A stretch of 64,000 bases of DNA from positions 9,959-73,958 of the IMG/VR virus record IMGVR_UViG_3300045988_175441, one strand, 5' to 3'. Below the pieces are notes generated by a model. That model did no database searches. It was not told where the DNA came from and was given only the letters and a program-made list of their open reading frames with translations. The translations under genes were made by a program, and so were the position numbers. Shown piece after piece: positions 40,547 through 62,695 of the stretch. This DNA is from a virus. The first letter of the stretch is position 1. Each line of letters starts with the position of its first letter.

Positions 40547-40575
40547 TTGACAGAGGAAAAGAAAGAGTGTATAAT
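40547..40575 (+). promoter_or_regulatory. Reiterated promoter cassette P1
   Basis: TTGACA-N17-TATAAT within GAGTGTATAATATAAACATAAAA. Confidence 0.7.
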
Positions 40576-40609
40576 ATAAACATAAAATCTAAGAAAGGCT
40601 TTAAGGAGA

Positions 40610-41974
40610 ATGATTTTAAGAGGGGAAGAAGTGATAGAACTCCGTCCTTGGCAAAAGTCGGCTCTAGTTCGCAGTAGAAGGGAGATAGACGGTATTTTCC
40701 TTGAAGCACTAGGTGGACGTGGTAAGACAATCGCAACAATGGCGATCATTCAGGAGAAGAAAGCAGAGCGTGTTCTAATCTTGAATAACAAGACAGCCAT
40801 ACTCAATGGTTGGGAGAAGGACGCTCAGGAGCTAAATTTGGGCTATCCTGTCGCTTTTACGGTCAAAACCGACAAATGGTTAAGGTCGAAAGCGAACGCT
40901 CTTAGAGAAGCCGAGAAGGGGCTTAAAACGCTTCGTAAAAAAATAGGGGTACGAAAACTCTATAGACAGAATCCAAAGTATGTAGAACTTAGCGAGAACG
41001 TGAAGCAGTTGAAAGCAGAGTTGGACTATGATGTACTTGTCATAGATGAATGGCAGGATATGTGTAGTAATCAGACCTGTAAGGACTATCTACATATCCA
41101 GAGAAAGTACACTATCGGCTTATCTGCAACACCTATCAGGCGCAAAGGGGAGAACTTTTACCCCCTTGAAAAGACCTTCTTCAAGACGCAAGAACCGTCC
41201 AATAGACAGGAATGGCTCTTAAAGTGGGGAACACTAGTCTATGATTCTTATTCTGCAATGAAAGCAAAGTGGAAGGATTTTGCAGACTACGAGAGCTATA
41301 TTGCTCAACTAGATAACCGTGGCAATTTTATGTGTTGCGAGGAGATCGAGAACATAGAGCAAGCTGTATTAAACAATGGCTTTGCAAAGGAGCTTTACCT
41401 AAAGCGTGTTTCAATCCCTGAGAAGAACAAAGAAAAGCTGAAAAGTTTTAAAAAGTTCAACGTCTTAGGAGTAGATGGCGATTATGTCATGGGTAAAGGC
41501 TCTATGTCTAACAAGCATACCGAACGCTTGCTGAGACAAGCAGAGGTTGTTATTGAAGATGGCAAGCTGATCGTAGATGACACTAAGATTAGTCCTGTAA
41601 TGGAAATGGCAGGTGGAATGTTAGAGAGGTCATTTAACCGAAAAGAGGGGCTGAAAGGTGGCGTGGTTGTCGTTTGTGAAAGCAAGAGAGTAGCAAAGGC
41701 AATGTATGAACACTTTAAAGGCAATTCTCTTGGGCTATGGACTGGCGATAAGCAGATAGACCACTTGAACAGCGCTAACTTAATTGCTACAGCAAAGGTC
41801 ATGGGAACTGGTGTAGATGGATTGCAGTATCGCTTTGATACTATGATTGTACTTGATCCAAAACAAGAAGGAAGTGGAGAGTACAATGATTATAGACAGT
41901 TGCAATGGCGTATCTCAGGGGCAAGACAACAACACAAAGTGAACATTGTTGAAGTGGTTTTCGTAGAGGAATAA
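40610..41974 (+). CDS. Superfamily-2 helicase-like ATPase (DEAD/SNF2-like)
   Basis: Motif I LGGRGKT, motif II VLVIDEWQ, motif III LSATP, and a C-terminal QLQWRISGARQ (motif VI-like). Confidence 0.65.
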   Translation: MILRGEEVIELRPWQKSALVRSRREIDGIFLEALGGRGKTIATMAIIQEKKAERVLILNNKTAILNGWEKDAQELNLGYPVAFTVKTDKWLRSKANALREAEKGLKTLRKKIGVRKLYRQNPKYVELSENVKQLKAELDYDVLVIDEWQDMCSNQTCKDYLHIQRKYTIGLSATPIRRKGENFYPLEKTFFKTQEPSNRQEWLLKWGTLVYDSYSAMKAKWKDFADYESYIAQLDNRGNFMCCEEIENIEQAVLNNGFAKELYLKRVSIPEKNKEKLKSFKKFNVLGVDGDYVMGKGSMSNKHTERLLRQAEVVIEDGKLIVDDTKISPVMEMAGGMLERSFNRKEGLKGGVVVVCESKRVAKAMYEHFKGNSLGLWTGDKQIDHLNSANLIATAKVMGTGVDGLQYRFDTMIVLDPKQEGSGEYNDYRQLQWRISGARQQHKVNIVEVVFVEE

Positions 41975-41977
41975 ATT

Positions 41978-42544
41978 ATGGGGATAAAAGAGATAGTTCA
42001 AAGAATTTTTAAGAAGGAAGCAAAAGTGCATATTCTTCTTGATATTGACGGAGTGCTTAACACAAACAAAGAGCCTACTGGCTATTACAAAATTATTTCA
42101 CACCCTTGGGGAAGGTGGACTGTAAGGACAGATGTTTTGGATTGGGTAAAAGAACTTTCAAGCATGGATAATGTTCAAGTCCATTGGGTATCAACTTGGG
42201 AAGATGAAAGCAATATTATCAATAAGTACCTAAATATCAAGGAGTTTCATTGTTTTAAAGTTAATGGAACGGTAGTAGAAGGGAAATTAAAAGCAATTAA
42301 GGAACAACTAGCGACAGTCAAAGGGAAAACAATTATTGCAATAGATGATGATTTGAACAGAAATCAGTTGCTATCTTTAACAGAGGAACAGAATGTTAAT
42401 AAGTTGAGACAAGAGGTTACTAACCTTGCTTATCAAAATCACAACGCTTTTTATGGAGTAGTTCCTGATAGAAATATTGGAATAAGTGACGAGGAAATGA
42501 AATTTGTTGGGGAAATTATAGAGCAGGAGTTGGCAAGAAGATAG
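41978..42544 (+). CDS. HAD-superfamily hydrolase-like protein
   Basis: N-terminal ILLDIDGVLN (DxDxV), then VSTWE, then IAIDDD, in the order of HAD motifs I-IV. Confidence 0.5.
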   Translation: MGIKEIVQRIFKKEAKVHILLDIDGVLNTNKEPTGYYKIISHPWGRWTVRTDVLDWVKELSSMDNVQVHWVSTWEDESNIINKYLNIKEFHCFKVNGTVVEGKLKAIKEQLATVKGKTIIAIDDDLNRNQLLSLTEEQNVNKLRQEVTNLAYQNHNAFYGVVPDRNIGISDEEMKFVGEIIEQELARR

Positions 42545-42548
42545 CTAT

Positions 42549-42577
42549 TTGAATTATTCAGAGGAACGGTGTATAAT
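42549..42577 (+). promoter_or_regulatory. Reiterated promoter cassette P2 (variant -35; apparently leaderless)
   Basis: TTGAAT-N17-TATAAT within GGTGTATAATATAAATATG. The A of the ATG at 42584 is the 7th nt after the -10. Confidence 0.5.
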
Positions 42578-42583
42578 ATAAAT

Positions 42584-43207
42584 ATGGGGAAAAGACAAGA
42601 TGTGGTTGTCAATCGCTTGTATGAGCTTGTAAAATCAACCTCAAAACCCAGAATACCAATGGCAGAATCTTTGAGCCGATATAGTGGGCTAGATGTCGAA
42701 CAGGTAAAAGATATAGCCATAGAAATCAATAAAGCACGCAGGATAAACAGTTTACCCAACTACCGAATGGTAAGTATCTTACTACGAGTGCTTCCTGATG
42801 AAGATATAAGGTATCTTCTGAAATTGAATCGAGAAGCAAGGTATGGGAATGAACAGAGAACTCCTGATGAAATGCTTGCGATTAGTATTTTTAGGAAAAG
42901 AATTAGTGGGCAGTTTAACCAGACCAGAAACGAAGTCTTTTCAGAACTGGTAAAAAAACACGCTGATCTAAATATCGTTCCTTGCGAGACGATATTAGAC
43001 GAGCTAGAGGACTATTTTAACAATAGTGAAATGATAATTCTTAGAATGGTAGCAAGAGGTTACAACCCTAAAATAGAGGACGCAACAAACACTATAAGTC
43101 TGCTGAGTGCAGAGCATAGGCAACTTATGAGAGAAAACAGAAAGAAAGAAAGAGACAGGTTACTATATGAGTACGAAAGAAGAAGTAAAACAGAAAGTGA
43201 AAACTAG
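42584..43207 (+). CDS. Hypothetical protein, 207 aa
   Basis: ATG at 42584. The track start at 42569 lies inside the promoter -10. Confidence 0.55.
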   Translation: MGKRQDVVVNRLYELVKSTSKPRIPMAESLSRYSGLDVEQVKDIAIEINKARRINSLPNYRMVSILLRVLPDEDIRYLLKLNREARYGNEQRTPDEMLAISIFRKRISGQFNQTRNEVFSELVKKHADLNIVPCETILDELEDYFNNSEMIILRMVARGYNPKIEDATNTISLLSAEHRQLMRENRKKERDRLLYEYERRSKTESEN

Positions 43208-43646
43208 CTATAAATATCATCATATCACGAGACGATATTTGAAGCGCAACTATCAAAAGGTTCTTGAAATTCAACGCAGATACCGAGAAGCACACCCAGA
43301 AAAGTCGAGAGAGTGGCGTAGAGAAGCGCAACGTAGGTTCTATCTGAAAAATAAGGATAAACCAGAGTATCAGGCAAGTAAATATTACAGCAACCAAAAA
43401 GGGAGCTTTAAACGCTATGTGTTGAATCACGCAGAGCAGGAAGAACTGAACCTTTTTCTATCCGTCTTGGAAGCTAAGAAGAAGAATGAAGCAGTCAAAC
43501 GCCCTGTACTGATTGCCCTAGATGATAAAGAAGTTCAAAAAATGCGAACGATAGCTTACCGTTTTATCTTTAAGAACGTAGAAGCAAAAGACTATAAGCA
43601 GGTTGAAGGCTTTATCCATGAAGCGCTAGAAAAACTAGAACGGTAA
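43167..43646 (+). CDS. Hypothetical basic protein, 159 aa
   Basis: ORF overlapping the upstream gene by 41 nt. Arg/Lys-rich. Confidence 0.5.
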   Translation: MSTKEEVKQKVKTSYKYHHITRRYLKRNYQKVLEIQRRYREAHPEKSREWRREAQRRFYLKNKDKPEYQASKYYSNQKGSFKRYVLNHAEQEELNLFLSVLEAKKKNEAVKRPVLIALDDKEVQKMRTIAYRFIFKNVEAKDYKQVEGFIHEALEKLER

Positions 43647-43649
43647 GGT

Positions 43650-43823
43650 ATGAAGTTCAAGCTCTTATTGTTACTAGTCAATGCAGGGGCAATGTATCTT
43701 GTTTATCTACATGAAAGCCCAGATAGAACCTTGCTTGGGTTATCTATCTTATTTTCCACCTACATTTATCTGTTTGTCAGGTATTTGTTTTGCAGACCAC
43801 AGAAAAACGCAAAGAGGAAATAA
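43650..43823 (+). CDS. Small membrane protein, 57 aa
   Basis: ATG after TAAGGT. MKFKLLLLLVNAGAMYLVYL...LSILFSTYIYLFVRYLF suggests two TM helices. It ends before the terminator, unlike track ORF 43681..43863. Confidence 0.45.
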   Translation: MKFKLLLLLVNAGAMYLVYLHESPDRTLLGLSILFSTYIYLFVRYLFCRPQKNAKRK

Positions 43824-43830
43824 CCTCATG

Positions 43831-43856
43831 GAAGCCTATAAAGGCTTCTTTTTTTG
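43831..43856 (+). terminator. Rho-independent terminator
   Basis: GAAGCC-TATAAA-GGCTTC stem followed by T7. Confidence 0.8.
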
Positions 43857-43858
43857 TA

Positions 43859-43899
43859 AATGAGCCTGTTCACTAAACCAAGAAAAAAAGAGTTATACT
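43859..43899 (+). promoter_or_regulatory. Promoter/operator element shared with 19195..19233
   Basis: ATGAGCCTGTTCAC-N16-GAGTTATACTAG. Confidence 0.55.
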
Positions 43900-45674: not shown

Positions 45675-45777
45675 ATAGATAACTCCCAGAGGAGCAGTTC
45701 CTTTGGGGTTTATTTTTAGACAACACGAAAAAATAATACATGAGTACAAAAAAATAATCAAAAAATCATAAAAAGTG

Positions 45778-45805
45778 TTGACAAAAGATAAAAAGAGTGT
45801 ATAAT
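45778..45805 (+). promoter_or_regulatory. Reiterated promoter cassette P3
   Basis: TTGACA-N16-TATAAT within GAGTGTATAATATAAATATAAAA. Boxes at 45723-45738 and 45745-45759. Confidence 0.7.
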
Positions 45806-46483: not shown

Positions 46484-47010
46484 ATATTAGAAAGTTTAAT
46501 AAAAAGTTCAAGTTGAAAGTGATAGATGTTGCAGGAGACTTTTTTGGGAAAAAGCATTATTACCACTTTGACACTTGGGAAGAAGTCCAGTTCTTTCTTC
46601 CCTTTGGTTATACAGAAGGCAAAAGGCAGATTGAAGTCACAGAGACAACGGTTGCTCCTGACGGTATGCAGACCTTTAGCAAAACCAAGGTCAAAACCTA
46701 TGATATAGGCGAGCTGACCTTCATAGAGCAAGTAAATAATGTCCTTGGGCTGTTTGGGGAAGAACTAGTCATATCAGACAACACGGAGCAGTTTGGGGTT
46801 TTGCTGATTGACCTTCCTTCCAAGCTCATGAAGTACACTTATGTTGCTAAGAGGATTATTGTGGGGCATACCTACTACTCAGCCCTTAGTTGTGATGATA
46901 TTACCTTTATTGCAGAAGAAGGTAGTAGAGCTGTATTCACTCAGGAAGAAGTGGAGAATGATCCAATCCTTAGACGGTATTATTTCAAAGAGTTAAAGGG
47001 TATTGACTGA
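46480..47010 (+). CDS. Hypothetical protein, 176 aa
   Basis: ATGA overlap with the upstream gene. Confidence 0.6.
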   Translation: MNIRKFNKKFKLKVIDVAGDFFGKKHYYHFDTWEEVQFFLPFGYTEGKRQIEVTETTVAPDGMQTFSKTKVKTYDIGELTFIEQVNNVLGLFGEELVISDNTEQFGVLLIDLPSKLMKYTYVAKRIIVGHTYYSALSCDDITFIAEEGSRAVFTQEEVENDPILRRYYFKELKGID

Positions 47011-47465
47011 TGAAGGATTTTGATTGGGTTATTGGAAAACAAGTAGGGGAGCTGACTATACTTAGTTATACACCCCCTTTAAAAGAGCTACGACACCAAA
47101 GAAACTGTACTTGTCTATGCAGTTGTGGAAAGCAGGTCGAAAAAAGGTTAAGTCGTGTTTTAGGAGAAGAAGTGAAGTCTTGTGGGCATTTACGTTCACA
47201 GGCAGGTAAGGACTTTTCAATCAACCTAGATCAGAATAAGGCTTACGAAGCAAGAACAAGTAAAGACAAGGCTATGTCGAACTCACAGACAGGGATAAGG
47301 AATATATCAAAGTCAAAAAATGGAGACGGATATAGGGTATATCTCAGAAGGCATGGCAAACATTATCGTAAGAGAGCCAAAACCCTTTCAGAAGCTCTAC
47401 TAGTCAAGAAAGAATTGATTAAACAAGCTGAGAGGGATTTTGGCGAGGTCATCTATAAAGACTAG
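47010..47465 (+). CDS. AP2-like DNA-binding domain protein with N-terminal Cys cluster
   Basis: CTCLCSCGKQV...SCGH, followed by TGIRNISKSKNGDGYRVYLRRHGKHYRKRAKTLSEAL (AP2/integrase-type pattern). Confidence 0.5.
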   Translation: MKDFDWVIGKQVGELTILSYTPPLKELRHQRNCTCLCSCGKQVEKRLSRVLGEEVKSCGHLRSQAGKDFSINLDQNKAYEARTSKDKAMSNSQTGIRNISKSKNGDGYRVYLRRHGKHYRKRAKTLSEALLVKKELIKQAERDFGEVIYKD

Positions 47466-47481
47466 AACAGAATAAAGAGAA

Positions 47482-47509
47482 AGTCCTACAAAAAGTTAGG
47501 ACTTTTTTA
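47482..47509 (+). terminator. Rho-independent terminator
   Basis: AGTCCTA/TAGGACT stem followed by T6. Confidence 0.75.
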
Positions 47510-48203: not shown

Positions 48204-49031
48204 ATGAAACTACGGTATGCTATCTGGGAACGATTAAAAAAGGCAAAAGAGGAGAAGGGGCTGACCTATCGTGAGTTATCAGAACGGACAGGTATCAGTC
48301 AGACAGCTCTTACAACTTTATTCTCAGTAAAACCAAACTGTACGGTTGGAAGAATTATCAAGTTATGCAAGGCTTTAAACAGAGACTTGTCCTATGCGTT
48401 CGGAGAAGATACAGGAAAAGTTCTTGTCTATCCAGAAACAGAAAGAGAAGCGATCAACAATTTTTGGAAGCAGATTGATTCTTACTACTTGAACCCTAAC
48501 GGACGCAAACATTACTCACGGAAGAAAGTCTATCGGTCAATGGGTAAGGCTTATTACAGGGCAGTAGGAGAAGATAATATCCATCTATCGCTTGACGTGG
48601 TGGAAAAATTCTCTAATCACTTGAAGATAAGTCCTTTGAACCTTATCTCAAAAACCTATAGCTTGGGTGGACGCTTGCACTTTAGGAAGCAAAACAGCCT
48701 AGTCTATCTACACTTACAGGACGGAAAGACAGATGTAGCAACCTATATGATTGATGGCGACAATTCACGCTATAAAGTCGAAGATTGGCTCATGGGTATG
48801 CTTGCAGGAACAGGTGGACGAGTGCTGACCTTGACGGATATTAACGACAAGCAAAGTCAAGTTTGCCTAGAGTGGGGCGACAGTCTTATTCTACGCCTAG
48901 AAAAAAACGGTCAGGAGCTTTATTCTTACAAGTCAGAAAAAGACAAGGCAAATGAACTACTAACAAAAATAAGCAGGAAGGAAAAAGGTTACGATTCATA
49001 CTTGAACCTTTTAGAAGAAAAAGAAATATGA
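48204..49031 (+). CDS. XRE-family HTH protein with an unknown 200-aa C-terminal domain
   Basis: LKKAKEEKGLTYRELSERTGISQTALTTLFS. Confidence 0.6.
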   Translation: MKLRYAIWERLKKAKEEKGLTYRELSERTGISQTALTTLFSVKPNCTVGRIIKLCKALNRDLSYAFGEDTGKVLVYPETEREAINNFWKQIDSYYLNPNGRKHYSRKKVYRSMGKAYYRAVGEDNIHLSLDVVEKFSNHLKISPLNLISKTYSLGGRLHFRKQNSLVYLHLQDGKTDVATYMIDGDNSRYKVEDWLMGMLAGTGGRVLTLTDINDKQSQVCLEWGDSLILRLEKNGQELYSYKSEKDKANELLTKISRKEKGYDSYLNLLEEKEI

Positions 49032-49201
49032 AAGAAGAAAATAGCAAGCTAGTATTTGCTATCATTGTGCTTGCGTCTCTACTACTTTCTGTTTATCTAT
49101 CTGCTGTTGTGGTAGCTGTTGTAAAAGATGTATCAATTACAACAGTTATCCATAATTGGCAGTCAGGAGCGCTTGATTTTTTGAAAAGCCTGATTGAGTA
49201 G
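49028..49201 (+). CDS. Small membrane protein, 57 aa
   Basis: ATGA overlap with the preceding stop. Contains LVFAIIVLASLLLSVYLSAVVVAVV. Below the ORF-track cutoff. Confidence 0.45.
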   Translation: MKEENSKLVFAIIVLASLLLSVYLSAVVVAVVKDVSITTVIHNWQSGALDFLKSLIE

Positions 49202-49217
49202 AAAGGAAAAAATATTT

Positions 49218-50723
49218 ATGTTTATAGTATATTTACTTGCTGTAGCCTTCTTAGTGGGTTTATTTGCAATCCTTGGTTACTGGGGTTCACAGATTGATAG
49301 GGGCAATTTAGAAAAAGAAATCATGTATCGTCAAAGGGCGTTAGGTAAACCTATTTTTGACGATATAGACTTTGAGAAGTACGGTTCAATCAAAGAGCTT
49401 ATACGACTGAACGAGGAGCTAAAAGTCCTACAAAGAATGCAGAAGGCTAGAGAAGGAAGTTTAGCATGGTATGAAGGCGTAGTTCCAGTTAGTGGGGAAG
49501 TGACGCAGAAACAAGGCTTTGAGTATATAGAGTTTGAAGAACAACAGGAAGCCCTTATCCCTCTTAATTGGGATTTATCCATCGTGGGGCAAGGAAAAGT
49601 TGACGTTGATAGAAAGAAACGTGACAGACGTATTCAGGAAGTTGAAAGGCTTGAAGAAAAGGTTGACAGTTACTTTAAAAATTGTTTTGGAAGAAATGTG
49701 ATCGCATTATTCAATACTAAAATAACTTGGAGTGGAGCTGAGTTCTTTATTAGAATAGCGCTTAAATATGGTTATGTAGAAACATACGCCTTGAAAGCTA
49801 TAAAAATTGACTTAGAAAGCATTTTTCATACTAACTCCTTAGAAGTGACAGAGTATGGGAATATTATCCGTATTGCTTTTAATACAAGTGAGATTGAGTT
49901 CCCAACAACTCACTATATGTTCTCAAAATTTGCAAGCGAAGGTGTACCTAAGACACCCCTAACAATTATGGCAGGGATTGATAAAGAAGGTAGAGTAAGG
50001 CAGTATGACCTTGCTATGGCAGGTGGAGTTCTGGTATGTGGTGGAGTTGGAAGTGGCAAAAGCAACTTTGTAAGACTAGCTCTTTCCTCAATCATGCTAC
50101 ACAGTACGCCAGATGAAGCTAAGTTTGTAGTTTATAGCCCTGCTGTTGATGTGGAGTTCCACTACCTCAAAGGAAGTCCGTATCTTTACAAGGATATACT
50201 ATGCAAAGAAGAAGAAACACTTAATGTCCTAGCAGAGCTGAAAAATGAGATTGACCGTAGATGGAAGATGTTTTCAGAACGTGCAGTCTATAGCGTTAGT
50301 GAATTTAACTCTATTGCTGATGAAAAAGAGAAATTGCCTTATCTGTTAGTTGTACTAAATGAAGCTGAGAGCTTGCTGTATCATAAGTATGATGAAGTGA
50401 TTGAACTATTGGTATCTTTGACAACTAGAGGACGATCTACAGGAGTTATTCTTTTAGAAACAACACATAACGCTAGAGCAGATATTGTTCCACAACGTCT
50501 GAAAGCCAATTTACCGTGTGTGATCGCTTATAGTCTAGGCAATTCTGTTGATAGCTTGATTGCTATTGGAACAGAAGGAGCAGGACGCTTACTAGTGTCA
50601 GAGTGCTTGATAAAATGGATTGATAGCCCAGAGCCTACTAAGATTAAAACCCCTTATATCAGCGATACAGAAATAGCTAAGATGGTTGAATCCACTAGTA
50701 AGAAGTTTAAGAAGTTTTCGTAA
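49218..50723 (+). CDS. Second FtsK/SpoIIIE-family ATPase (TcpB-like), membrane-anchored, with Asn in the Walker B motif
   Basis: TM MFIVYLLAVAFLVGLFAILGYW. Walker A CGGVGSGKSNF. Walker B region LLVVLNEAESL, with N where FtsK-like proteins have D. Confidence 0.75.
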   Translation: MFIVYLLAVAFLVGLFAILGYWGSQIDRGNLEKEIMYRQRALGKPIFDDIDFEKYGSIKELIRLNEELKVLQRMQKAREGSLAWYEGVVPVSGEVTQKQGFEYIEFEEQQEALIPLNWDLSIVGQGKVDVDRKKRDRRIQEVERLEEKVDSYFKNCFGRNVIALFNTKITWSGAEFFIRIALKYGYVETYALKAIKIDLESIFHTNSLEVTEYGNIIRIAFNTSEIEFPTTHYMFSKFASEGVPKTPLTIMAGIDKEGRVRQYDLAMAGGVLVCGGVGSGKSNFVRLALSSIMLHSTPDEAKFVVYSPAVDVEFHYLKGSPYLYKDILCKEEETLNVLAELKNEIDRRWKMFSERAVYSVSEFNSIADEKEKLPYLLVVLNEAESLLYHKYDEVIELLVSLTTRGRSTGVILLETTHNARADIVPQRLKANLPCVIAYSLGNSVDSLIAIGTEGAGRLLVSECLIKWIDSPEPTKIKTPYISDTEIAKMVESTSKKFKKFS

Positions 50724-52154: not shown

Positions 52155-52214
52155 AAACATTGGGGAAGTTTAGGAGCAAGTAGCTAGGAGAAAATCCTAG
52201 CTATTTTTTTATTT

Positions 52215-52473: not shown

Positions 52474-52847
52474 ATGAACCAAGATGAACGCAACGCAACG
52501 CAAAGAGAGTAGCTGAACTTACCAAGCTACAAGCTATTAAAGAGACAACTGAACGCCTACTTCACTCAGGCGAAGAAAACACTCATACTCTTATCATGGT
52601 TGAGACTACTAGGAAAGGCGAGGAAATCGAAACAATAAGCCGAGTTATGGCTGACGGAGATGTACGTCAAATCTTATTGTCGGTTGGTGGGCTTCTCAAA
52701 ACAGCAAAAAAGATGATGAATAGCTTTCCTGATGACTTTATTGAGGATGCAAAGGAAACAAGAAAAGAAGAACTGCTTAATCTTTTTCTGCAATCGGCTG
52801 AAATCGGCTCACAGTTGATGGAGTGGTGTGAAATCGGAGATATGTAA
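52474..52847 (+). pseudogene. Small gene interrupted by a frameshift at an (AACGC)3 repeat
   Basis: The SD-equipped ATG at 52474 (AAGGGG, 7 nt upstream) gives only 12 codons. The 83-aa ORF starting at 52596 has no SD and is open back to 52488 in the +2 frame. Removing one 5-nt unit fuses the two. Confidence 0.45.
52487..52503 (+). repeat. Pentanucleotide repeat (AACGC) x3.4
   Basis: AACGCAACGCAACGCAA. Confidence 0.8.
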
Positions 52848-52859
52848 AGAGGTTCAGAT

Positions 52860-53198
52860 ATGATAGTAAAAGATTATAAGAACAATGGGGAAAGCATTAC
52901 ATACAAGCTAGACTATGATATTTTTAGTGTGAACGTTGAACATAAAAAAACTAGTGAAGGAGTTAATGTAACTGACCTGACAGACTTGTTCGATTGGCTA
53001 GATGAACAAGAAGTAAGCGTACTGCCATTAAAATATTTTTTGTGTTTCCAAGATAGTCTGTTACTAGCAGGCGACACATTAGATTTTGCAATGAGCGAAC
53101 GCAAAATGACGCAAAAAGGAATTGAAGAACTAGCTGATAAATTATTTGATAAGAATATATCAGAACGTTTAGAATCAATTTGTGGAAGGAAGGAGTAA
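52860..53198 (+). CDS. Hypothetical acidic protein, 112 aa
   Basis: ORF in the operon. Confidence 0.55.
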   Translation: MIVKDYKNNGESITYKLDYDIFSVNVEHKKTSEGVNVTDLTDLFDWLDEQEVSVLPLKYFLCFQDSLLLAGDTLDFAMSERKMTQKGIEELADKLFDKNISERLESICGRKE

Positions 53199-53207
53199 AA
53201 GAGAAGA

Positions 53208-53996
53208 ATGCGAAAAATCATAATGATTACAATAAATATCATTGCATTGGTCTTGATGTCAAGTGATGATGTGAAACATAGAGTTGTAGGGGTATCTATT
53301 ATAATTTTCTGTTATTTGTTCCTTCTGCTTAATTACACGCTTCCTAATAGAAATTATGAAAACTATAGCGTAAAAAGAATTGAAGCGCCTATATTAAGTG
53401 CAAGAAAACAGTTTAAAGTCAAAAAGATTGCGACCTATAAAGTGAATGAAGGGGTTTTAACAGAGGAAAAATGGGAAGATTTAAAACTTGCGTTAAACTC
53501 CTTTGCATTAGAGTTTTTACATAGAAATTTTCCTGATGTTGAATGGGATAGTCAATTCTATTTAATAAAATATGATGGAAGGTTAGCAGGGGTGTTTGTG
53601 AGCATAGCACTTTATAAAGAACTTATGTTTACAGAAAAGCCTATGTCACCTATTTTGTTAAATGAAACTTTTCTGTATGCTACAATCAAGTTTAATGATT
53701 TTGGGATTATTAAACCAGTAGTGGAACATGAATTAGTACACTATGCACTTTGGAAACAAGGAAAGAAATTTAGAGATCATCAAGAAGATTTTGAAAACAA
53801 ACTTTTAGAGTTGAATATCCCATCAAATAACCCTGAAAATTCAAACGCTTACAGCTTTGGGATAGAACGTATTGAAACAGAGAATGGGATTGAGGACACG
53901 CTATCTTTAATTATACCGCCTAGCAAATTATCTGAAAAAGATTACAAGAACGTCCTAGAAAAATATATAAATAAGTATAACAGCAATGATGAATAG
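53208..53996 (+). CDS. Membrane-anchored HExxH metallopeptidase-like protein (SprT-like motif)
   Basis: Two N-terminal TM helices, and VVEHELVHYALW (HExxH). Confidence 0.5.
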   Translation: MRKIIMITINIIALVLMSSDDVKHRVVGVSIIIFCYLFLLLNYTLPNRNYENYSVKRIEAPILSARKQFKVKKIATYKVNEGVLTEEKWEDLKLALNSFALEFLHRNFPDVEWDSQFYLIKYDGRLAGVFVSIALYKELMFTEKPMSPILLNETFLYATIKFNDFGIIKPVVEHELVHYALWKQGKKFRDHQEDFENKLLELNIPSNNPENSNAYSFGIERIETENGIEDTLSLIIPPSKLSEKDYKNVLEKYINKYNSNDE

Positions 53997-54014
53997 GGGG
54001 AGAATAAATCAAAC

Positions 54015-54692
54015 ATGACAAATTGGTTTGTACGGATAAACCACAGGAAAGACAATAAAGGGGAGTTTTACTCAGAACAAGTAGAACGTAAGCTATATTT
54101 TGACTATGCTACAAAACGTGATGTACTTGATAAAGTGAAAAAAGACTACCCTGAGTATTTCTTTAATAAAGTACCACAGAGAACGGTAGATGGGGAGTTA
54201 TTCTATGTCAATGTCTATGAATTAGATAGCCATTGGGAAGAATTTTGGACTGAAAAAATCCCTTGTCAGTATTGTGGAGAGAATCCAGTCAATAGGATTG
54301 ACCTTAAAAATAATAACTATAGTGGCTATTATTTCTGTTGTTTGGAGCATGAGGAACAGTTCTATGAAAACCGATTGAGGGAAGATGACAGAACTTACCA
54401 GAATAGCAAAGTAGTTGGCTTTATTTACAAGATTACCCATAAACAAACAGGGAAAATATATATTGGAAAGACGGTCAACCACCCTATTTTTAGATGGTTT
54501 CAACATTTTAAAGCGCAGTCAGGTAGTTATTTTCATGAAGCAATGAAAGATAGCAAGATCACAGATTGGACGTATGAGGTTATAGATGTATTGGAAAAAG
54601 GTTTAGAAAAGGACTTACTAGACCTAGAAAGTAAGTATATAGCAGAGTATAACGCAACAGATCGTGATTATGGATATAACACGAAAGATTAG
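54015..54692 (+). CDS. GIY-YIG nuclease-domain protein with an N-terminal Cys-rich domain
   Basis: GFIYKITHKQTGKIYIGKT..RWFQH..E..YI..YN (GIY-YIG order), and CQYCGEN...CCLEHE upstream. Confidence 0.7.
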   Translation: MTNWFVRINHRKDNKGEFYSEQVERKLYFDYATKRDVLDKVKKDYPEYFFNKVPQRTVDGELFYVNVYELDSHWEEFWTEKIPCQYCGENPVNRIDLKNNNYSGYYFCCLEHEEQFYENRLREDDRTYQNSKVVGFIYKITHKQTGKIYIGKTVNHPIFRWFQHFKAQSGSYFHEAMKDSKITDWTYEVIDVLEKGLEKDLLDLESKYIAEYNATDRDYGYNTKD

Positions 54693-54708
54693 AGAAAGGG
54701 GAAATAAG

Positions 54709-55125
54709 ATGAAGAAATTGACGGTTAGAGGTATTTCCACTCACGAAGAAAGTAAAGGCGAGTGGAAATATGGCTACCTTATTGAAGATGAAGGAATATC
54801 TTATATTATCAATAGTGTTGTGGAAGCAAATGACGAGTATATCACTATTGGAGAGTGGTGTTCTGTAGATCCTGAAACATTGGGTATATCAACAGGGGTG
54901 CCTGATGAAGATGGAACAGAAATCTTTGAAGGGGATATAGTTAGACAAGTACGAACCCAACCAACAACGGAAAACGAAACAATCACAGGCGTTGTAACCA
55001 TGATTGAGGGCGCTTGGTTGATTATGAATGATAACAAGCAATTAGCAAGTTATTTGTGGTCAGAGACGGATAAAAATGAAGTCATAGGTAGTATCTATGA
55101 AAATCCAGAGTTGCTAGAAGAATGA
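54709..55125 (+). CDS. YopX-family protein
   Basis: ATG after AAAGGGG. Contains GTEIFEGDIV and the C-terminal VIGSIYENPELLEE typical of YopX. Confidence 0.6.
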   Translation: MKKLTVRGISTHEESKGEWKYGYLIEDEGISYIINSVVEANDEYITIGEWCSVDPETLGISTGVPDEDGTEIFEGDIVRQVRTQPTTENETITGVVTMIEGAWLIMNDNKQLASYLWSETDKNEVIGSIYENPELLEE

Positions 55126-55136
55126 AAGGGGAAAAA

Positions 55137-55388
55137 ATGAATAAAGCAGAATGGAATAAACTTGTAGTAAGAAAACTGCTTCAAGAAGAAAAAGTACATT
55201 TTGGGGATAATGTGTCAAGTATTTGGGAAGGAGTGACACCTGATATTGACGAGGAAGTGTTGGTTTACACTCCAGAAATCGGAGTGACTACAGATACTTG
55301 GATAGACTATGGAAATGGGGTTGGTTTTGAAAATTATGATTATGACGTGATTTATTGGACTAGCTTCCCAGAACCACCAAACGAATGA
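55137..55388 (+). CDS. DUF551-like small protein
   Basis: The pattern EEVLVYTP...DVIYWTSFPEPPNE resembles the phage DUF551 C-terminus. Confidence 0.45.
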   Translation: MNKAEWNKLVVRKLLQEEKVHFGDNVSSIWEGVTPDIDEEVLVYTPEIGVTTDTWIDYGNGVGFENYDYDVIYWTSFPEPPNE

Positions 55389-55499
55389 TAGGAATAACCT
55401 TTGAGGTTTGTTAGGACAACCTGATAACCTTGAGGGTTTTCTTTTTTGTTAAAGAACACAAAAAGATAAGACAAAAACACAAAAAGATGATAAAAAATG

Positions 55500-58232: not shown

Positions 58233-58883
<651 letters not shown>

Positions 58884-58896
<13 letters not shown>

Positions 58897-59369
58897 AGGA
58901 GAAAGCATTGTTAGAAAAATTGACGTTGCATTATAATGAAAATACTACTTGGCTTATTATAGCTATAGTTGTCTGTTTTGCAGTTGTTTCACTTGTCGCT
59001 ACTATAGTTTCGCTAGTGGCAATTTGGAAAGACAGAGGTAAGCCTTTTAGAGTTTCAAAAAACGTGCTATTGCTTTGTATGACCTTTTTGGTATCAATTC
59101 TTTGTATAATGGCAGAGATCGCCTGTTGTTTGGCAATAATGGGAGAAATTAGAGGATATAACGCTAACAAGGATATACAGACAGGCATTTCGGATATTAA
59201 AGACTATTATGAGATAAAACCAAAAGGCAACCTTTTATATTTTAATTTGAAGGGAAAGTATAGAGGGTTAGGAATACTAGAATATCATGCAACAGCAGAG
59301 GTTGTAGAAGAAAATCCGACTGTATATAAAATAGAATACGAGGGAGATTATTTTGAAATTAAGAAGTAA
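58884..59369 (+). CDS. Membrane protein, 161 aa
   Basis: Two TM helices (WLIIAIVVCFAVVSLVATIVSLVAIW and LLLCMTFLVSILCIMAEIACCLAIM). Overlaps the methylase stop. Confidence 0.6.
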
Positions 59370-59383
59370 TAGGTTAATTTAAA

Positions 59384-59407
59384 AGGCTAGATCCACTAGC
59401 CTTTTTA
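59384..59407 (+). terminator. Rho-independent terminator
   Basis: AGGCTAG-ATCCA-CTAGCCT stem followed by T5. Confidence 0.8.
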
Positions 59408-59560
59408 TTTGCGCATAAAATGGGCGTATATGGCACTTTAGGTCAAAGTGGCATAAACTCTAGGTAGAGCGATTTAAAATGCGATAGAGGGCAAAACAAG
59501 AGGAAATAAGAGCCAGATACCCAGAATGCCATTGTCAAGGTATAGCTAAAAAATAAAGTC
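59405..59560. repeat. Dispersed intergenic repeat, copy A
   Basis: Aligns along about 150 nt with 60075-60240, for example CTTTAGGTCAAAGTGGCATAAACTCTAGGTAGAGCGATTTAAAATGCGATAGAGGG against GTTTTAGGACAAAACAGCATAATTCTAGGTGGAGCGATATAAAACGTGATGGGAG. Confidence 0.6.
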
Positions 59561-59598
59561 ACGCGCAACAAAAAATAATCAAAATATGATAAAAAGTC

Positions 59599-59627
59599 TT
59601 GACAATAGATAGAAAAGAATGTATAAT
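59599..59627 (+). promoter_or_regulatory. Reiterated promoter cassette P8
   Basis: TTGACA-N17-TATAAT within GAATGTATAATATAAACATAAAA. Box at 59566-59580. Confidence 0.7.
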
Positions 59628-59665
59628 ATAAACATAAAATTATTAGGAAAATATGGGGTAAAATA

Positions 59666-60037
59666 ATGAACGAACAAGTTAAATTAGCAAAAAGTGTAGA
59701 ACAGCCTATCAGAAAGCATCGTACTGTATTTACAAGTACAAAAGGATTGTTAAGAAAGAAAAGATGGGTAATGTTGGATATTGATGAACATGGTCTTACT
59801 TATCGTAGTAAACCAAATTATTCAGGAACCGTGCTTTCCTCAATATATCATGCTATAGGAGAAATTATTATAGATCAACGTGCTTTTACAGTAACTATTA
59901 AAATGGGTGAAATGGACGTTCACAGAATATGTGTGATTGACTTAAAAAGATTAGATGGAGATTTATGGGCGAATTTTAATATCATTAAAGAAAAAATATC
60001 TATGTTTGCAGAAAATAAATTGGTTATCAAAAATTAG
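59666..60037 (+). CDS. Hypothetical protein, 123 aa
   Basis: Single-gene cassette between P8 and a hairpin with a T-run at about 60060-60085. Confidence 0.6.
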   Translation: MNEQVKLAKSVEQPIRKHRTVFTSTKGLLRKKRWVMLDIDEHGLTYRSKPNYSGTVLSSIYHAIGEIIIDQRAFTVTIKMGEMDVHRICVIDLKRLDGDLWANFNIIKEKISMFAENKLVIKN

Positions 60038-60074
60038 ATAAATTAGAAGAAGAAAAAGACTGGCTTTGTAACAG

Positions 60075-60240
60075 CCTTTTTTATATCCTCAAAATGCGCC
60101 TAAAATGGCGCGTGTGACGTTTTAGGACAAAACAGCATAATTCTAGGTGGAGCGATATAAAACGTGATGGGAGCTAAAATAAGGGGGAATACAGACGAGC
60201 TAGAGACGAATGTACCTTAGAGAGAGGATATAAAGCGAGG
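60075..60240. repeat. Dispersed intergenic repeat, copy B
   Basis: See copy A. Contains the small hairpin GCGCC-TAAAAT-GGCGC. Confidence 0.6.
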
Positions 60241-60306
60241 AATAAGGCGTTTATCAAATAGAACACAAAAAGATAATATAAAAGTATAAAAAAATAATCA
60301 AAACCA

Positions 60307-60335
60307 TTGACAAGGGGAAAGAAAAGGTGTATAAT
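60307..60335 (+). promoter_or_regulatory. Reiterated promoter cassette P9
   Basis: TTGACA-N17-TATAAT within AGGTGTATAATATAACCATAAAT. Boxes at 60263-60278 and 60285-60299. Confidence 0.7.
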
Positions 60336-60384
60336 ATAACCATAAATAACGAAAGAAAGATCAACAAGGTCTGGGTAAAAGAAA

Positions 60385-60696
60385 ATGATTAAAGTAAACG
60401 CAAATATTAAAGACGTAGCGAAAGAACTTGCTGTAAATATCGGAAGGGATAGCATGGAATTTTATCTCACAAAAGACGGCGAAACTGGTGTCCGTCAAAG
60501 TGGAAGTTTTGGGGCAAATGAGAGCGAAGTCGTTTACAAAGTACCACTTGATAAATGGTATTGGAAATACGAATTGGAAACAATCGGTCTTGATGTTGAC
60601 AAAAAATTAAACGAAGAAGAACTTAAAACACTTACCGACTATATCGTAAAAACAGACCGCAACAATGGCGAAAGACTGGAATGGAACGAAAATTAA
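60385..60696 (+). CDS. Hypothetical protein, 103 aa
   Basis: First ORF after P9. Confidence 0.55.
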   Translation: MIKVNANIKDVAKELAVNIGRDSMEFYLTKDGETGVRQSGSFGANESEVVYKVPLDKWYWKYELETIGLDVDKKLNEEELKTLTDYIVKTDRNNGERLEWNEN

Positions 60697-60716
60697 AAAA
60701 GAAGAGGTGTAAAATT

Positions 60717-60938
60717 ATGGCAAATAAAGATGGTTGGCATATAGTTTACGGACAAAACGTTTATGTAGAGAATGGGAAAGTCGTCTTAGGAACAAGAAAA
60801 GACGAAAACAACTCAGAAGTCACTTGCTATCCTTATGAGTACGACAAAGACCATGACTGTTGGGTTAATATTTCTAAGGAAGTAACTCTATCAGCTTATA
60901 GGGCAGGGTACAAAAGAGGAACTAAATGTATGAAGTAA
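60717..60938 (+). CDS. Hypothetical protein, 73 aa
   Basis: ATG at 60717 after AGAGGTG. The track start at 60681 overlaps the previous gene. Confidence 0.5.
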   Translation: MANKDGWHIVYGQNVYVENGKVVLGTRKDENNSEVTCYPYEYDKDHDCWVNISKEVTLSAYRAGYKRGTKCMK

Positions 60939-60948
60939 GCAAAGAACC

Positions 60949-60972
60949 AGAGGGGGCAACCCCTCTTTTTTG
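60949..60972 (+). terminator. Rho-independent terminator
   Basis: AGAGGGG-GCAA-CCCCTCT stem followed by T6. The same hairpin recurs at 63546. Confidence 0.85.
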
Positions 60973-61027
60973 TTTCGTCGCAACACAAAAAAATAATCAA
61001 AAAACATAAAAAAATGATAGAAAACAG

Positions 61028-61056
61028 TTGACAAAGGACAAAAAAGAGTGTATAAT
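61028..61056 (+). promoter_or_regulatory. Reiterated promoter cassette P10
   Basis: TTGACA-N17-TATAAT within GAGTGTATAATATAAACATAAAGAAGTTAAGGAG. Box at 60983-60998. Confidence 0.7.
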
Positions 61057-61087
61057 ATAAACATAAAGAAGTTAAGGAGAAAACATA

Positions 61088-61759
61088 ATGAACGCAACAC
61101 CAGTTTTAGACCGAGCAGTAGTAGGAGCAAAGGCAAAAGAAAAGGTATTAAAACTTCTTACCAAGCAACTAAAACAACAGAAAAAAGACGTGCTTTGTCG
61201 AGCAGGCATACACCAAGTTCATCACTACAAGGACAAGTCAGTATATACAGATGGGCGAGTTTGTTTTCACTTGCCTGCTTCTCTCATTGATAAGCATATA
61301 TCTTTAAATATCTTCACTCCAAAGGAAATTGAAAAAGGAAATAAACCAGTTGATCCAGAATCCTTTAGCTATCCAGATACAGATAGACTTTTTTACAAAG
61401 AAAAGCAACTACAAGAAATGTCTAAAGTTGAGCTTGATGTATTAAAGACTTTGAAAGAGCTGAAAGAGTTAAAGAAAAAGACGGTTGAACAACCAAAACT
61501 AGGGAAGGTTGTCCGTGTTAACCAACAAACAGGGGCTTTCACTCAATGTAACGAGCCTAAACAAGATATTAAGGATAGACGTTCTAAAGATTATGGTATC
61601 TTAGTGCAAGTGGACTTTCTTATCAATACACTATCAATCGTGAAAGAATTTGGAGATAAGCAAGTCACATTTTACTTAAATAAAGAAAACCCTTATCGCC
61701 CTATTGCTATTTACAGTGACAATGTAAAAAGTATGGTAGCACCAATCCGTTATAACTAA
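61088..61759 (+). CDS. Hypothetical protein, 223 aa
   Basis: ATG after AAGGAG. The track ORF 61048..61290 is a read-through of the promoter. Confidence 0.65.
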   Translation: MNATPVLDRAVVGAKAKEKVLKLLTKQLKQQKKDVLCRAGIHQVHHYKDKSVYTDGRVCFHLPASLIDKHISLNIFTPKEIEKGNKPVDPESFSYPDTDRLFYKEKQLQEMSKVELDVLKTLKELKELKKKTVEQPKLGKVVRVNQQTGAFTQCNEPKQDIKDRRSKDYGILVQVDFLINTLSIVKEFGDKQVTFYLNKENPYRPIAIYSDNVKSMVAPIRYN

Positions 61760-61815
61760 CTCCAACTCCTACCCCTGCTCCAACGCAACGAGCAGGGGAA
61801 AAGGAGTGATGATAT

Positions 61816-61926
61816 AACCACTTTATAAAGAGATAGGTAAGAGTTTCATAGATAATCTCCTTTTATACCAACGCTGAAACACATAAAAACTCCGTACCGA
61901 ATTACCTATCTCCCTATAAGGTGGTT
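61816..61926 (+). other. Long imperfect inverted repeat (25-nt arms, 61-nt loop)
   Basis: AACCACTTTATAAAGAGATAGGTAA (61816-61840) pairs with TTACCTATCTCCCTATAAGGTGGTT (61902-61926). It begins just after a TGATATAAC -10-like element (61809-61817) and ends 35 nt before a small hydrophobic ORF. Confidence 0.5.
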
Positions 61927-61961
61927 AGCAATAACCAAAAAACAAAAAGGAGAATCGCAAA

Positions 61962-62060
61962 ATGTATCTAGGACAACTACTAGCTTATCCTATATGGCTA
62001 TATATAGGAATAAGCGTGATCGCTATTGTACGCAACGCTTGGAAGAATATGGAAGGATAG
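61962..62060 (+). CDS. Small hydrophobic peptide, 32 aa (candidate type I toxin)
   Basis: AAGGAG lies 8 nt before the ATG. MYLGQLLAYPIWLYIGISVIAIVRNAWKNMEG is one TM helix plus a polar tail. Below the ORF-track cutoff. Confidence 0.4.
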   Translation: MYLGQLLAYPIWLYIGISVIAIVRNAWKNMEG

Positions 62061-62154
62061 CAAATGCTACTTCTTCTTTTTATTTGCATCACAAAAAGGC
62101 GAAAAAGAAACACAAAAAAATAATAAAAAAGTACAAAAAAATAATACAAAATGG

Positions 62155-62183
62155 TTGACAGGTAGAAAATAAAGGTGTATAAT
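62155..62183 (+). promoter_or_regulatory. Reiterated promoter cassette P11
   Basis: TTGACA-N17-TATAAT within AGGTGTATAATATAAATATAAAA. Boxes at 62111-62126 and 62132-62146. Confidence 0.7.
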
Positions 62184-62218
62184 ATAAATATAAAAGGTTG
62201 AGAAAAAAGGAGAACAAA

Positions 62219-62539
62219 ATGAACAACACAGTAACAACAACAAAACACGCAGTCATTGAACTTGTCAAAAGCGCTCAAGTCTTTACAAAGGATAGGAACG
62301 ATAACGCTACTAGCGTTAAAGCTCTTGACAACATTAGAGATTTTATTTTTAATGTGAACCAAGTCTTTACTCCTGATGGTGCAACTAAAGTGGCTTTAGA
62401 CGACATTTGCCAACGTTGCTTGATCTATAGTGATTCTTTTAAGCCTAACGTGGATTTGGTTGACATGGCTAAGAAAATCAACAGCGTCAGATTTGACGTG
62501 ATGTTGGAATTGAAAACAGCCAAAATTGATATTTTTTAG
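62219..62539 (+). CDS. Hypothetical protein, 106 aa
   Basis: ATG after AAAGGAG. Confidence 0.6.
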   Translation: MNNTVTTTKHAVIELVKSAQVFTKDRNDNATSVKALDNIRDFIFNVNQVFTPDGATKVALDDICQRCLIYSDSFKPNVDLVDMAKKINSVRFDVMLELKTAKIDIF

Positions 62540-62586
62540 ACTAACAAATACCAACCGTATTAGTATTTGAGAAGTAAAATAGAGAA

Positions 62587-62609
62587 AGAGGGGTTATCCC
62601 CTCTTTTTA
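62587..62609 (+). terminator. Rho-independent terminator
   Basis: AGAGGGG-TTAT-CCCCTCT stem followed by T5. Confidence 0.85.
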
Positions 62610-62666
62610 GTTGCAAACACAACACAAAAAAATAATCAAAAAACATAAAAAAGTTGCAAAAAGTAG

Positions 62667-62695
62667 TTGACAAAGAGTTAAAAAGAGTGTATAAT
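62667..62695 (+). promoter_or_regulatory. Reiterated promoter cassette P12
   Basis: TTGACA-N17-TATAAT within GAGTGTATAATATAAACATAAAGAAGTTAAG. Box at 62621-62636. Nearly identical to P10 over about 100 nt. Confidence 0.7.

Follow-up and report, generated by a model that had tools for sequence, protein, structure and literature searches.

It was chiefly by repeated regulatory sequences that 'establishment regulons' came to be defined in those few plasmids of Gram-positive bacteria that have been studied, p576 and pLS20. In p576 of Bacillus pumilus (Reg576/EGeRS2) and in pLS20 (EGeRS1), several strong sigma-A promoters that share upstream sequence head variable mosaic operons of small genes, and the 'establishment' genes in question comprise methylases, nucleases and anti-restriction genes (PMC6294495; PMC8708921); methylases and nucleases are also reported from the variable mosaic establishment operons of the pLS20 family (PMC8708921). 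The p576 promoters have two direct repeats right before the -35 (PMC6294495; PMC8708921). The linear plasmid pIKMIN-B502 of Streptococcus salivarius DB-B5 was announced as a 'linear phage-like episome' in a genome announcement without an analysis of the features treated here (PMC7530928). We analysed a 64,000-nt stretch of the IMG/VR virus record IMGVR_UViG_3300045988_175441 (positions 9,959 to 73,958 of that record; the whole stretch is called the window below), in which one promoter sequence is repeated ahead of co-oriented small genes over more than 20 kb. Judged by related contigs, the window is most of a linear replicon of ∼75–86 kb, and the array is one of its two outward-facing arms. 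The feature belongs with the repeated-promoter accessory or establishment regulons, and it lies on a linear plasmid family that is known only from the genome announcement of one relative. We propose, with a probability of roughly 0.6, that the repeated element is a near-maximal sigma-A promoter for the host polymerase that selection maintains as the front end of the arm cassettes, that serves as shared homology for exchange and that is repressed through upstream boxes in established cells.

The -10/start block TGTATAATATAAMCATAAA gave 11 matches with three or fewer mismatches on the plus strand of the window, all within 40.5–62.7 kb (starting, by their -35, at 40547, 45778, 47530, 50891, 52414, 55500, 59599, 60307, 61028, 62155 and 62667), where 0.16 were expected by chance and none of 100 shuffles reached 12; a single minus-strand match with three mismatches was unrelated. 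The full form of these 11 copies was TTGACA-N16/17-(G)TGTATAAT-ATAA-N-Y-ATAAA, and a weaker twelfth copy at 42549, likewise on the plus strand, carried TTGAAT and the start block ATAAATATGGGG. Scored against the sigma-A/sigma-70 hexamers at a spacing of 16–18 bp, 10 copies matched at 12 of 12 positions as perfect TTGACA-N17-TATAAT, the copy at 45778 matched at 12 of 12 with a 16-nt spacer, and the weaker copy matched at 10 of 12. The transcript from this last copy may be leaderless, the ATG of the next open reading frame (ORF; 42584) lying 6 nt past the TATAAT (42572-42590). The initial annotation had listed twelve copies, all on the plus strand and none in the first 40 kb, and each of these statements stood for the full core within the window when the weaker copy is counted. 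The first 40 kb held only two consensus-like promoters, at 8690 and 25913, neither with the arm-type -10/start block. Assembly artefacts were excluded by the recurrence of these arrays in many independent assemblies, and the element is kept in related replicons.

When the copies were anchored on the -10, high information content was found at the -35, at a GTG ahead of the -10, and over the -10 plus the next 11 bases (ATAA-N-Y-ATAAA), as had been claimed earlier for conservation beyond the hexamers, while the spacer was purine-rich yet varied from copy to copy. A pyrimidine followed by A at ∼7 nt downstream of the -10, the predicted start site, was present in 11 of the 12 copies. An UP element would be an A/T-rich block at -40 to -60 that the alpha subunits contact; most copies had an A-rich region upstream, for example ATAAAAAGTG adjoining the -35, which overlaps the box motif described below and from which P1 and P5 (the copies are numbered in Table 1) are largely free. 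The reported near-identity of P10 and P12 amounted to a mean column identity of 89% over ∼140 nt, including the preceding terminator hairpin. A terminator ahead of each copy, also part of the earlier description, was recovered for about 7–8 of 12 copies as a terminator-like hairpin within ∼100 nt upstream, by scans or by reading of the upstream sequence. The copies are not extended -10 promoters: the TG directly abuts the hexamer (GTG-TATAAT) in place of TGn at -15/-14, and the corresponding scan scored none of them. A single-strand promoter of the Frpo type was ruled out on reading the sequence, which is that of an ordinary duplex promoter without a hairpin, and a scan of the window against Rfam returned no known RNA family. 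When species-representative genomes were scanned for the complete pattern, 12 single matches were obtained, all unrelated and none of them in Streptococcus; the motif is therefore not a general form of host promoter, and the source is not one of these genomes.

We then measured divergence from the window in 36 positional orthologues, that is, copies that aligned over both flanks and fell below 98.5% identity overall. Divergence was 8.9% in the upstream flank, 8.5% in the leader and 8.7% in the downstream flank, and reached 20.6% in the first 14 nt of the spacer, against 0.5% in the -35, 0.9% in the GTG, 0% in the -10 and 2.5% in the start block. A second view came from 252 unique copies chosen on the two hexamers and a purine-rich spacer only, from loci that had been fetched by the full pattern, which leaves some ascertainment bias. 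In these, the GTG was 92–95% conserved base by base and the ATAA 96–100%; position -2 was free (A 46%, T 40%), position -1 was C in 78% and T in 21%, and the bases from +1 onward were A 97%, T 96%, A 96%, A 96% and A 85%. This pattern, unconstrained at -2 with a pyrimidine and then A at -1 and +1, matches the known start-site preference of bacterial RNA polymerase. On these divergence patterns, the core is kept by purifying selection and not by recent copying.

The latter would make the element a repeat family without a function of its own, its copies having arisen neutrally through recent duplication or gene conversion. Some pairs, such as P10 and P12, are indeed alike far beyond the core, and the outermost cassettes lie inside homogenized inverted repeats. 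We nevertheless consider this reading very improbable, because the copies have unrelated spacers between hexamers that do not vary, and because a spacer that diverges by a fifth between nearly unchanged hexamers in positional orthologues contradicts neutrality. The promoter pattern was present in at least 120 metagenomic and at least 114 IMG/VR loci, a count that includes an unrelated class with T-rich spacers. Among the matches listed, 348 copies with purine-rich spacers, from many samples, headed at least 65 unrelated first-gene families, and the core is also common to a plasmid whose proteins are only ∼25% identical (see below); both facts count against neutral copying as well.

A second array was found to the left of the window, where a contig carrying the window's left-end genes had this promoter five times or more on the other strand. 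Seven IMG/VR contigs of 72–86 kb had all their left-arm copies on the minus strand and all their right-arm copies on the plus strand, up to 19 in the parts covered; the same promoter is thus on both arms, in ∼20 copies per replicon, and always points to the nearer end. In four contigs of 76–86 kb the two ends were inverted repeats of each other, 1.5–2.8 kb long and 99–100% identical. The last 1.4 kb of the window matches these repeats, and the window stops ∼60–160 nt before the assembled ends of its relatives. Such inverted ends in the relatives point to a linear molecule of the pELF kind, and the terminal inverted repeats together with the second outward arm speak against an ordinary circular conjugative plasmid with one array. 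The outermost ∼210 nt of the longest contigs formed an imperfect palindrome (DNA fold -40 kcal/mol, z = -6.8; L272 1-225, L162 9850-10148) that was present in both orientations beside the same internal sequence in different assemblies, which is suggestive of incompletely paired hairpin telomeres of the flip-flop type. The GC skew changed sign at 8–19 kb, near rep, and this fits bidirectional replication from an internal origin with the genes co-oriented with it.

Comparison of near-identical relatives showed how the arms differ. Loci L019, L021 and L022 followed the window at 99.7–99.8% identity as far as 62195, within the start block of P11, beyond which they carried a different gene. In L020, P11 and its gene were replaced by another promoter-gene unit and the sequence rejoined where a ribosome-binding stretch is conserved; such stretches, GGAGAACGCAACATG among them, likewise serve as joints. 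L023 had a 250-bp insertion at 62548. Overall, 16 of 74 distinct ends of homology blocks fell in cassettes, which make up 7.2% of the array sequence (∼3-fold enrichment, p = 6e-5), 38 fell at other gene boundaries and 20 inside genes. The expectation that relatives would gain or lose genes precisely at cassette boundaries was thus borne out by the swaps in L019, L021 and L022 and not by the 38 junctions at other gene boundaries. Likewise, the proposed repeated duplication or recombination failed for recent copying, selection taking its place, and stood for gene gain, loss and replacement with junctions in or next to the cassette.

The cassette-like layout and the junctions inside the repeat would also be expected of a site-specific, integron-like capture system with the repeat as its recombination site. 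We regard such a system as extremely improbable, and ruled it out as the mechanism, given that the junctions were spread from -80 to +60 around the core and not placed at one phosphodiester bond, that half of them lay at other gene boundaries, that ribosome-binding stretches act as joints too, and that no integrase or site-specific recombinase family was found among the window proteins. Going by the junctions, the promoter is one favoured joint among many and not a dedicated recombination site. The homing-endonuclease-like genes of the array, one HNH-like (47010-47465) and one GIY-YIG (54015-54692), were observed to sit between cassettes, and pIKMIN-B502 carries ERF and PD-(D/E)XK recombination genes; genes of these kinds could drive the gene-level mosaicism. 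Many cassettes of the relatives also share a leader with a small hairpin, GGGC-AACGCAACAA-GCCC, followed by AAAGGAGAAC(C/G)GCAAC (L029, L030, L070, L126, L127, L139, L147 17290-17330), so that leader and ribosome-binding modules are repeated and reused as well. The T-rich-spacer class (..TTGTATAATATAACTATAAA; Table 1) occurred on unrelated contigs of 95–335 kb, several times per contig, some of them filed as viral, and may represent another giant element with a repeated promoter of its own.

Table 1. Promoter copies, boxes, candidate regulators and ends (positions refer to the window unless loci are named)
Feature	Position or loci	Strand	Description
P1	40547..40586	+	perfect core TTGACA-N17-GTG-TATAAT-ATAAACATAAA; no boxes; directly after terminator 40505-40536 and HU gene; heads helicase/HAD genes
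P2	42549..42586	+	weak variant, TTGAAT, TATAAT-ATAAAT-ATG
P3	45723..45816	+	boxes at 45723 and 45744; core with 16-nt spacer; terminator 45684-45708 ahead
P4	47512..47569	+	A-rich upstream region and core; heads SSB and helix-turn-helix (HTH) regulator genes; hairpin 47480-47505 ahead
P5	50891..50930	+	core, start block ATAAACATAAT; heads small ORF and non-specific nuclease gene
P6	52414..52453	+	perfect core; heads eight ORFs 52596-55388 including GIY-YIG and YopX; terminator 52178-52206 upstream
P7	55456..55539	+	boxes at 55456 and 55477 and core; heads ∼11 small genes including DNA methyltransferase (58435-58896)
P8	59565..59638	+	one box and core; single gene 59666-60037
P9	60263..60346	+	two boxes and core ATAACCATAAA; two genes
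P10	60983..61067	+	two boxes and perfect core; terminator 60949-60969 upstream
P11	62110..62194	+	two boxes and core ATAAATATAAA; clearest cassette swap among near-identical variants is here
P12	62622..62706	+	box and perfect core; inside the stretch that is the terminal inverted repeat of related full-length contigs
Terminal-repeat homologue	62573..64000	+	repeats of the 76-86 kb relatives match 62573-63996
End pairs of related full-length contigs	L188/L235, L238/L214, L242/L225, L272/L254		terminal inverted repeats
Boxes, inverted orientation	8731..8795	.	between divergent gene 8067-8567 and parA (8822-9664), beside parA promoter 8690
Boxes	9676..9740	.	between parA and 182-aa gene
Two boxes	10356..10417	-	just 3' of 182-aa gene; no promoter adjoining
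Backbone promoter with two boxes	25869..25941	+	TTGACA-N17-GATTTAAT; without arm-type -10/start block
Boxes near right end	63580-63690		position-weight-matrix matches
Candidate box-binding protein, 182 aa, encoded after ParA	9785..10333	+	candidate by position and box layout
HTH_3 (Xre-type) protein, second candidate regulator	48204..49031	+	within array; matches phage repressor families
T-rich-spacer class	L033, L036, L038-L040, L057-L060, L062-L064, L099, L118, L122, L132 and others		matches to promoter pattern with T-rich spacer

Upstream of the core, a box motif ACACAAAAARATAAT gave 24 position-weight-matrix matches in the window against 3.2 in local shuffles, all of them intergenic and often paired at a distance of 21 bp. 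In the array, boxes lay at -43/-22 or at -53/-32/-11 relative to the -35, that is, in one helical phase or the other, at 7–8 of the 12 copies. The initial annotation had treated the boxes as part of the cassette; they are real and stand beside these 7–8 arm promoters, but they also occur around parA and the gene after it, in direct as well as inverted orientation, and at a backbone promoter (Table 1). The boxes are accordingly a separate plasmid-wide motif, not specific to the array, and the cassette joins this upstream motif to the arm-specific core. They are probably sites of a putative regulator or centromere protein. The 182-aa protein encoded after ParA is made of two repeats that look ribbon-helix-helix-like by eye, its only homologues were close ones (at least 75% identity over the aligned part), and an AlphaFold single-sequence model reached a pLDDT of 44; the ribbon-helix-helix family was not matched by any window protein. 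Neither the candidate regulators nor the upstream motifs of the window lineage resemble those of the pIKMIN-B502 lineage, while the core is shared. We take this to mean, most simply, that the shared core would be read by common host machinery and the differing parts by plasmid proteins.

It had been suggested that a factor recognizing the -10/+1 region co-regulates the copies. In that case the block GTG-TATAAT-ATAA-N-Y-ATAAA would be the operator of a dedicated plasmid or host regulator that switches the arm regulon. The conservation of the block goes past the known needs of the polymerase; the block is arm-specific, the backbone promoters sharing only the boxes; GTGTATA-ATA-TAAACAT reads as a weak imperfect dyad; in the enterococcal plasmid pELF_GK941, three repeated promoters contain a perfect palindrome whose right half is the related GTGTGTATAAT; and an Xre-type repressor-like gene lies within the array. 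We still judge such an operator to be unlikely, since position -2, a would-be contact of the dyad, is free, since the variable spacer holds no conserved partner half-site, and since the block is common to pIKMIN-B502, whose dissimilar candidate regulators argue for a shared reader, the host polymerase. The free -2 was also the reason for setting aside a palindromic operator in this block as the main explanation. No factor reading the block was found, and the pattern around the start, unconstrained at -2, C or T at -1 and A at +1, fits the start-site preference of the polymerase at least as well as co-regulation by such a factor.

Under the promoter explanation that we favour, each copy would be a near-maximal promoter for the primary sigma factor, with A-rich sequence upstream, consensus -35 and -10 hexamers separated by a 17-bp spacer, an AT-rich stretch, and a pyrimidine and then A at the start. 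Gene cassettes on the two variable arms of the linear replicon would have it as their standard 'front end', with each arm transcribed toward its nearer end and co-directionally with replication from an internal origin. Selection on function would hold the promoter almost invariant, and the promoter, because it is common to all cassettes, would also offer a short homology for the exchange of cassettes between arms and plasmids. The boxes would be bound by a plasmid-encoded protein, most likely the 182-aa protein, which would hold these otherwise constitutive promoters down in the established cell; on entry of the DNA into a cell without the box-binding protein, the promoters would fire in a burst of expression. 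We infer the box-mediated repression from the layout of the boxes around the par genes and from the analogy with Reg576 of p576 (PMC6294495).

Several observations weigh against this explanation. Four of the 12 copies (P1, P2, P5 and P6) have no clear box, and the 182-aa protein could not be assigned a fold or family, with no match in Pfam and only PDB matches at E of 0.27 or above. The conserved TG lies one base nearer to the -10 than the canonical TGn, an invariant GTG goes beyond the textbook rules, and the strict ATAA (-6 to -3) and TAAA (+2 to +5) exceed the known requirements of the polymerase. Activity, strength and start site of the promoters are predictions made from the sequence. No relaxase or origin of transfer was found in the window to mark the DNA that would enter first. 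Finally, Ptra of pELF2, the sole promoter tested there, was constitutive and plasmid-independent (PMC13492992).

A cultured, distant relative, pIKMIN-B502, is 57.7 kb long, recorded as linear, and has a terminal inverted repeat of 1178 bp. It carries a cassette of its own in outward orientation, nine copies on the left arm and six on the right, before almost every small gene, and its core TTGACA-N17-TATAAT-ATA(T/A)ACATAAAG is common to both replicons. Linearity, terminal inverted repeat, outward arms and repeated promoter cassette are therefore alike, while the VirB4-like protein, at 25% identity, places pIKMIN-B502 in another lineage, with its own conserved spacer and a TGTATATAA motif upstream of the -35 in place of the window's boxes. 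Its two ends (L026, L273, NZ_CP054155.1) were seen to begin with (GT)14 followed by CGCAGTCGCTC repeats, unlike the ends of the window family.

A more distant likeness was found to the conjugative plasmids pELF1 and pELF2 of Enterococcus faecium, which are also linear, encode a distant VirB4-like ATPase (21.7–23.3% identity among the matches listed) and share the order of an AAA ATPase gene and a gene for a large protein (PMC6863802; PMC13492992). The transfer proteins of the window correspond to theirs with weak homology: a VirB4 analogue, an FtsK-type ATPase, and an AAA ATPase followed in the same order by a 1389-aa protein. An FtsK-type translocase, a lysozyme-like hydrolase and LPXTG proteins are further shared features, and pELF_GK941 also has small families of repeated promoter or operator sequences. 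On the other hand, protein identity is very low, the host of the window family is an oral Streptococcus, and pELF1 has one hairpin end and one protein-capped end where the window family has symmetric inverted repeats. No arm-wide universal promoter has been described for pELF plasmids, the word 'promoter' being absent from the pELF1 paper. In pELF_GK941 (L274), a 38-nt palindrome, AATTTATGTTATTATGGTATCATAATAACATAAAT, occurred five times ahead of operons (1585, 13965, 21648, 32503, 40679), and a promoter whose spacer is palindromic, TATACACAC-NN-GTGTGTATA-AT, occurred three times (5316, 6293, 38294); neither family was found to be mentioned in the two pELF papers searched.

The name given to pIKMIN-B502 in its announcement (PMC7530928) and the filing of the 72–86 kb relatives as viral contigs in IMG/VR raise the alternative that the element is a phage or phage-plasmid and the copies its early promoters. 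The array does contain genes of phage type (YopX, a ProQ_C-like domain, homing endonucleases, a single-stranded DNA-binding protein, SSB). An array-wide nucleotide comparison with GenBank phages gave nothing useful, its one match being of 185 bp, to the YopX gene of a Streptococcus phage. The early promoters of T5, T7 and SPO1 are numerous, near-consensus and strong, with homology beyond the hexamers, and head small host-takeover genes; poxviruses, for their part, have variable arms beside inverted terminal repeats, transcribe the genes there toward the termini and end in flip-flop hairpins that are incompletely paired. We hold both likenesses to be analogy only and a viral nature of the element to be improbable. 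No capsid, terminase, portal or tail family was found by Pfam in the 64 kb or by PHROGs in the arm, Pfam searches with nearly all window proteins gave no relaxase, recombinase or virion family, and the backbone is of plasmid type, with a Rep_3 initiator, ParA, an FtsK-type coupling protein, a VirB4-like ATPase, LPXTG adhesins, and the AAA ATPase and large downstream protein ordered as in conjugative pELF-type plasmids.

Like the establishment regulon of p576, the window has repeated boxes, mostly paired, ahead of the -35, in 7–8 of the 12 copies. The heptamer operator TTATCCC is absent, the box sequence being unrelated, and the spacing differs, 2 bp for the p576 operator against 21 bp for the window box. 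A Reg576 homologue was not recognized, and no Reg576-like ribbon-helix-helix match was obtained among the window proteins. Further differences are the number of copies (4–5 in p576, ∼20 per replicon here), the near-invariant core including the start block, which sets the window apart from both p576 and pLS20, and the linear replicon with an array on each arm, where regulation would follow p576 by analogy.

Two other plasmid-wide regulons, those of omega in pSM19035 and of KorA/KorB in RK2, depend on a single plasmid protein whose sites lie both at the partition locus and beside many promoters. The boxes of the window are arranged likewise at the par locus and beside many promoters, their binding being putative, whereas no kinship with omega, ParG or KorB was found at the level of sequence or family, and the window promoters themselves are near-identical.

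Among the arm products with a recognizable family were a DNA helicase and an HAD protein, SSB, the Xre-type repressor-like protein, a second FtsK-like protein, a non-specific nuclease, HNH-like and GIY-YIG endonucleases, YopX, a ProQ_C-like protein and an orphan DNA methyltransferase. Most arm genes had no known function, and no recognized anti-restriction family was matched. By analogy, this gene content resembles the establishment operons of the pLS20 family, and it is consistent with leading-region anti-defence islands (PMC11541004).

The conserved centre of the replicon, ∼40 kb, encodes the Rep_3 initiator, ParA, the FtsK-like and VirB4-like transfer proteins, a cell-wall hydrolase and surface adhesins. 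The backbone FtsK_SpoIIIE domain (gene 11242-13872) was matched at E = 2.6e-44, and the second gene of FtsK/SpoIIIE type, besides this backbone copy, lies in the variable arm at 49194-50723 on the plus strand. A large lysozyme/CHAP hydrolase is encoded in the first 40 kb, as are the AAA ATPase and the 1389-aa protein that follows it. An LPXTG surface protein is encoded by the ORF 39128-39922, which reads LPNTG at its C terminus, and a Gram_pos_anchor match was obtained in the gene that runs off the left edge of the window. Two HU-family genes, 174-452 (-) and 40219-40497 (+), share ∼72% nucleotide identity and each adjoins an LPXTG adhesin gene; they were seen to mark the inner boundaries of the left and the right arm in mirror-image positions. 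Between the transfer genes and rep lie three tandem paralogous genes for proteins of ∼365 aa (15801-19159, minus strand), to which no family was assigned and which were kept in all relatives seen. Right after the replication initiator, a 155-aa protein (21104-21571, plus strand) begins with MKILAIDPSS... and looks RuvC-like by eye; it had no match in Pfam or PDB and, if of RuvC type, would be a candidate resolvase of telomeres or concatemers.

As to the source of the family, exact copies of window proteins were found only in metagenomes, mostly human oral ones where record names state the source, on contigs of up to 75–86 kb; for the last arm gene (63141-63527) no exact copy was found. The only database relatives of the VirB4-like protein were in pIKMIN-B502 and in many E. 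faecium plasmids, 99 Enterococcus plasmid records being matched, among them pELF_GK941, and a nucleotide comparison of the array with the plasmids of PLSDB gave no match. In some relatives the adjacent adhesin was an antigen I/II protein, a type that we take to be typical of oral streptococci.

Taken further, these replicons may form a previously unrecognized family of linear conjugative plasmids with hairpin ends, common among the streptococci of the human mouth, in which the telomere-proximal arms are cassette libraries and one universal promoter gives immediate establishment or anti-defence expression from either end as well as homology for exchange. This broader picture is tentative and, as a whole, rather doubtful; if true, the repeated promoter would be a promoter-based counterpart of the integron that needs no integrase. 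The family takes the logic of the establishment regulon to an extreme in the number of its copies, its almost invariant core and the range of gene families that it heads, on a linear replicon that is abundant in human oral metagenomes and had not been analysed before. The motif is a handle by which the whole accessory gene pool of the family can be listed from metagenomes, and existing oral metatranscriptomes allow a check of the transcription starts predicted from it; the cultured relative S. salivarius DB-B5 makes regulation, linearity and transfer testable. The arms would show how such plasmids express and reshuffle a large accessory gene pool and, given the distant kinship to the pELF plasmids that spread vancomycin resistance, the organization of the arms and the ends may bear on how pELF plasmids gain and express their cargo.

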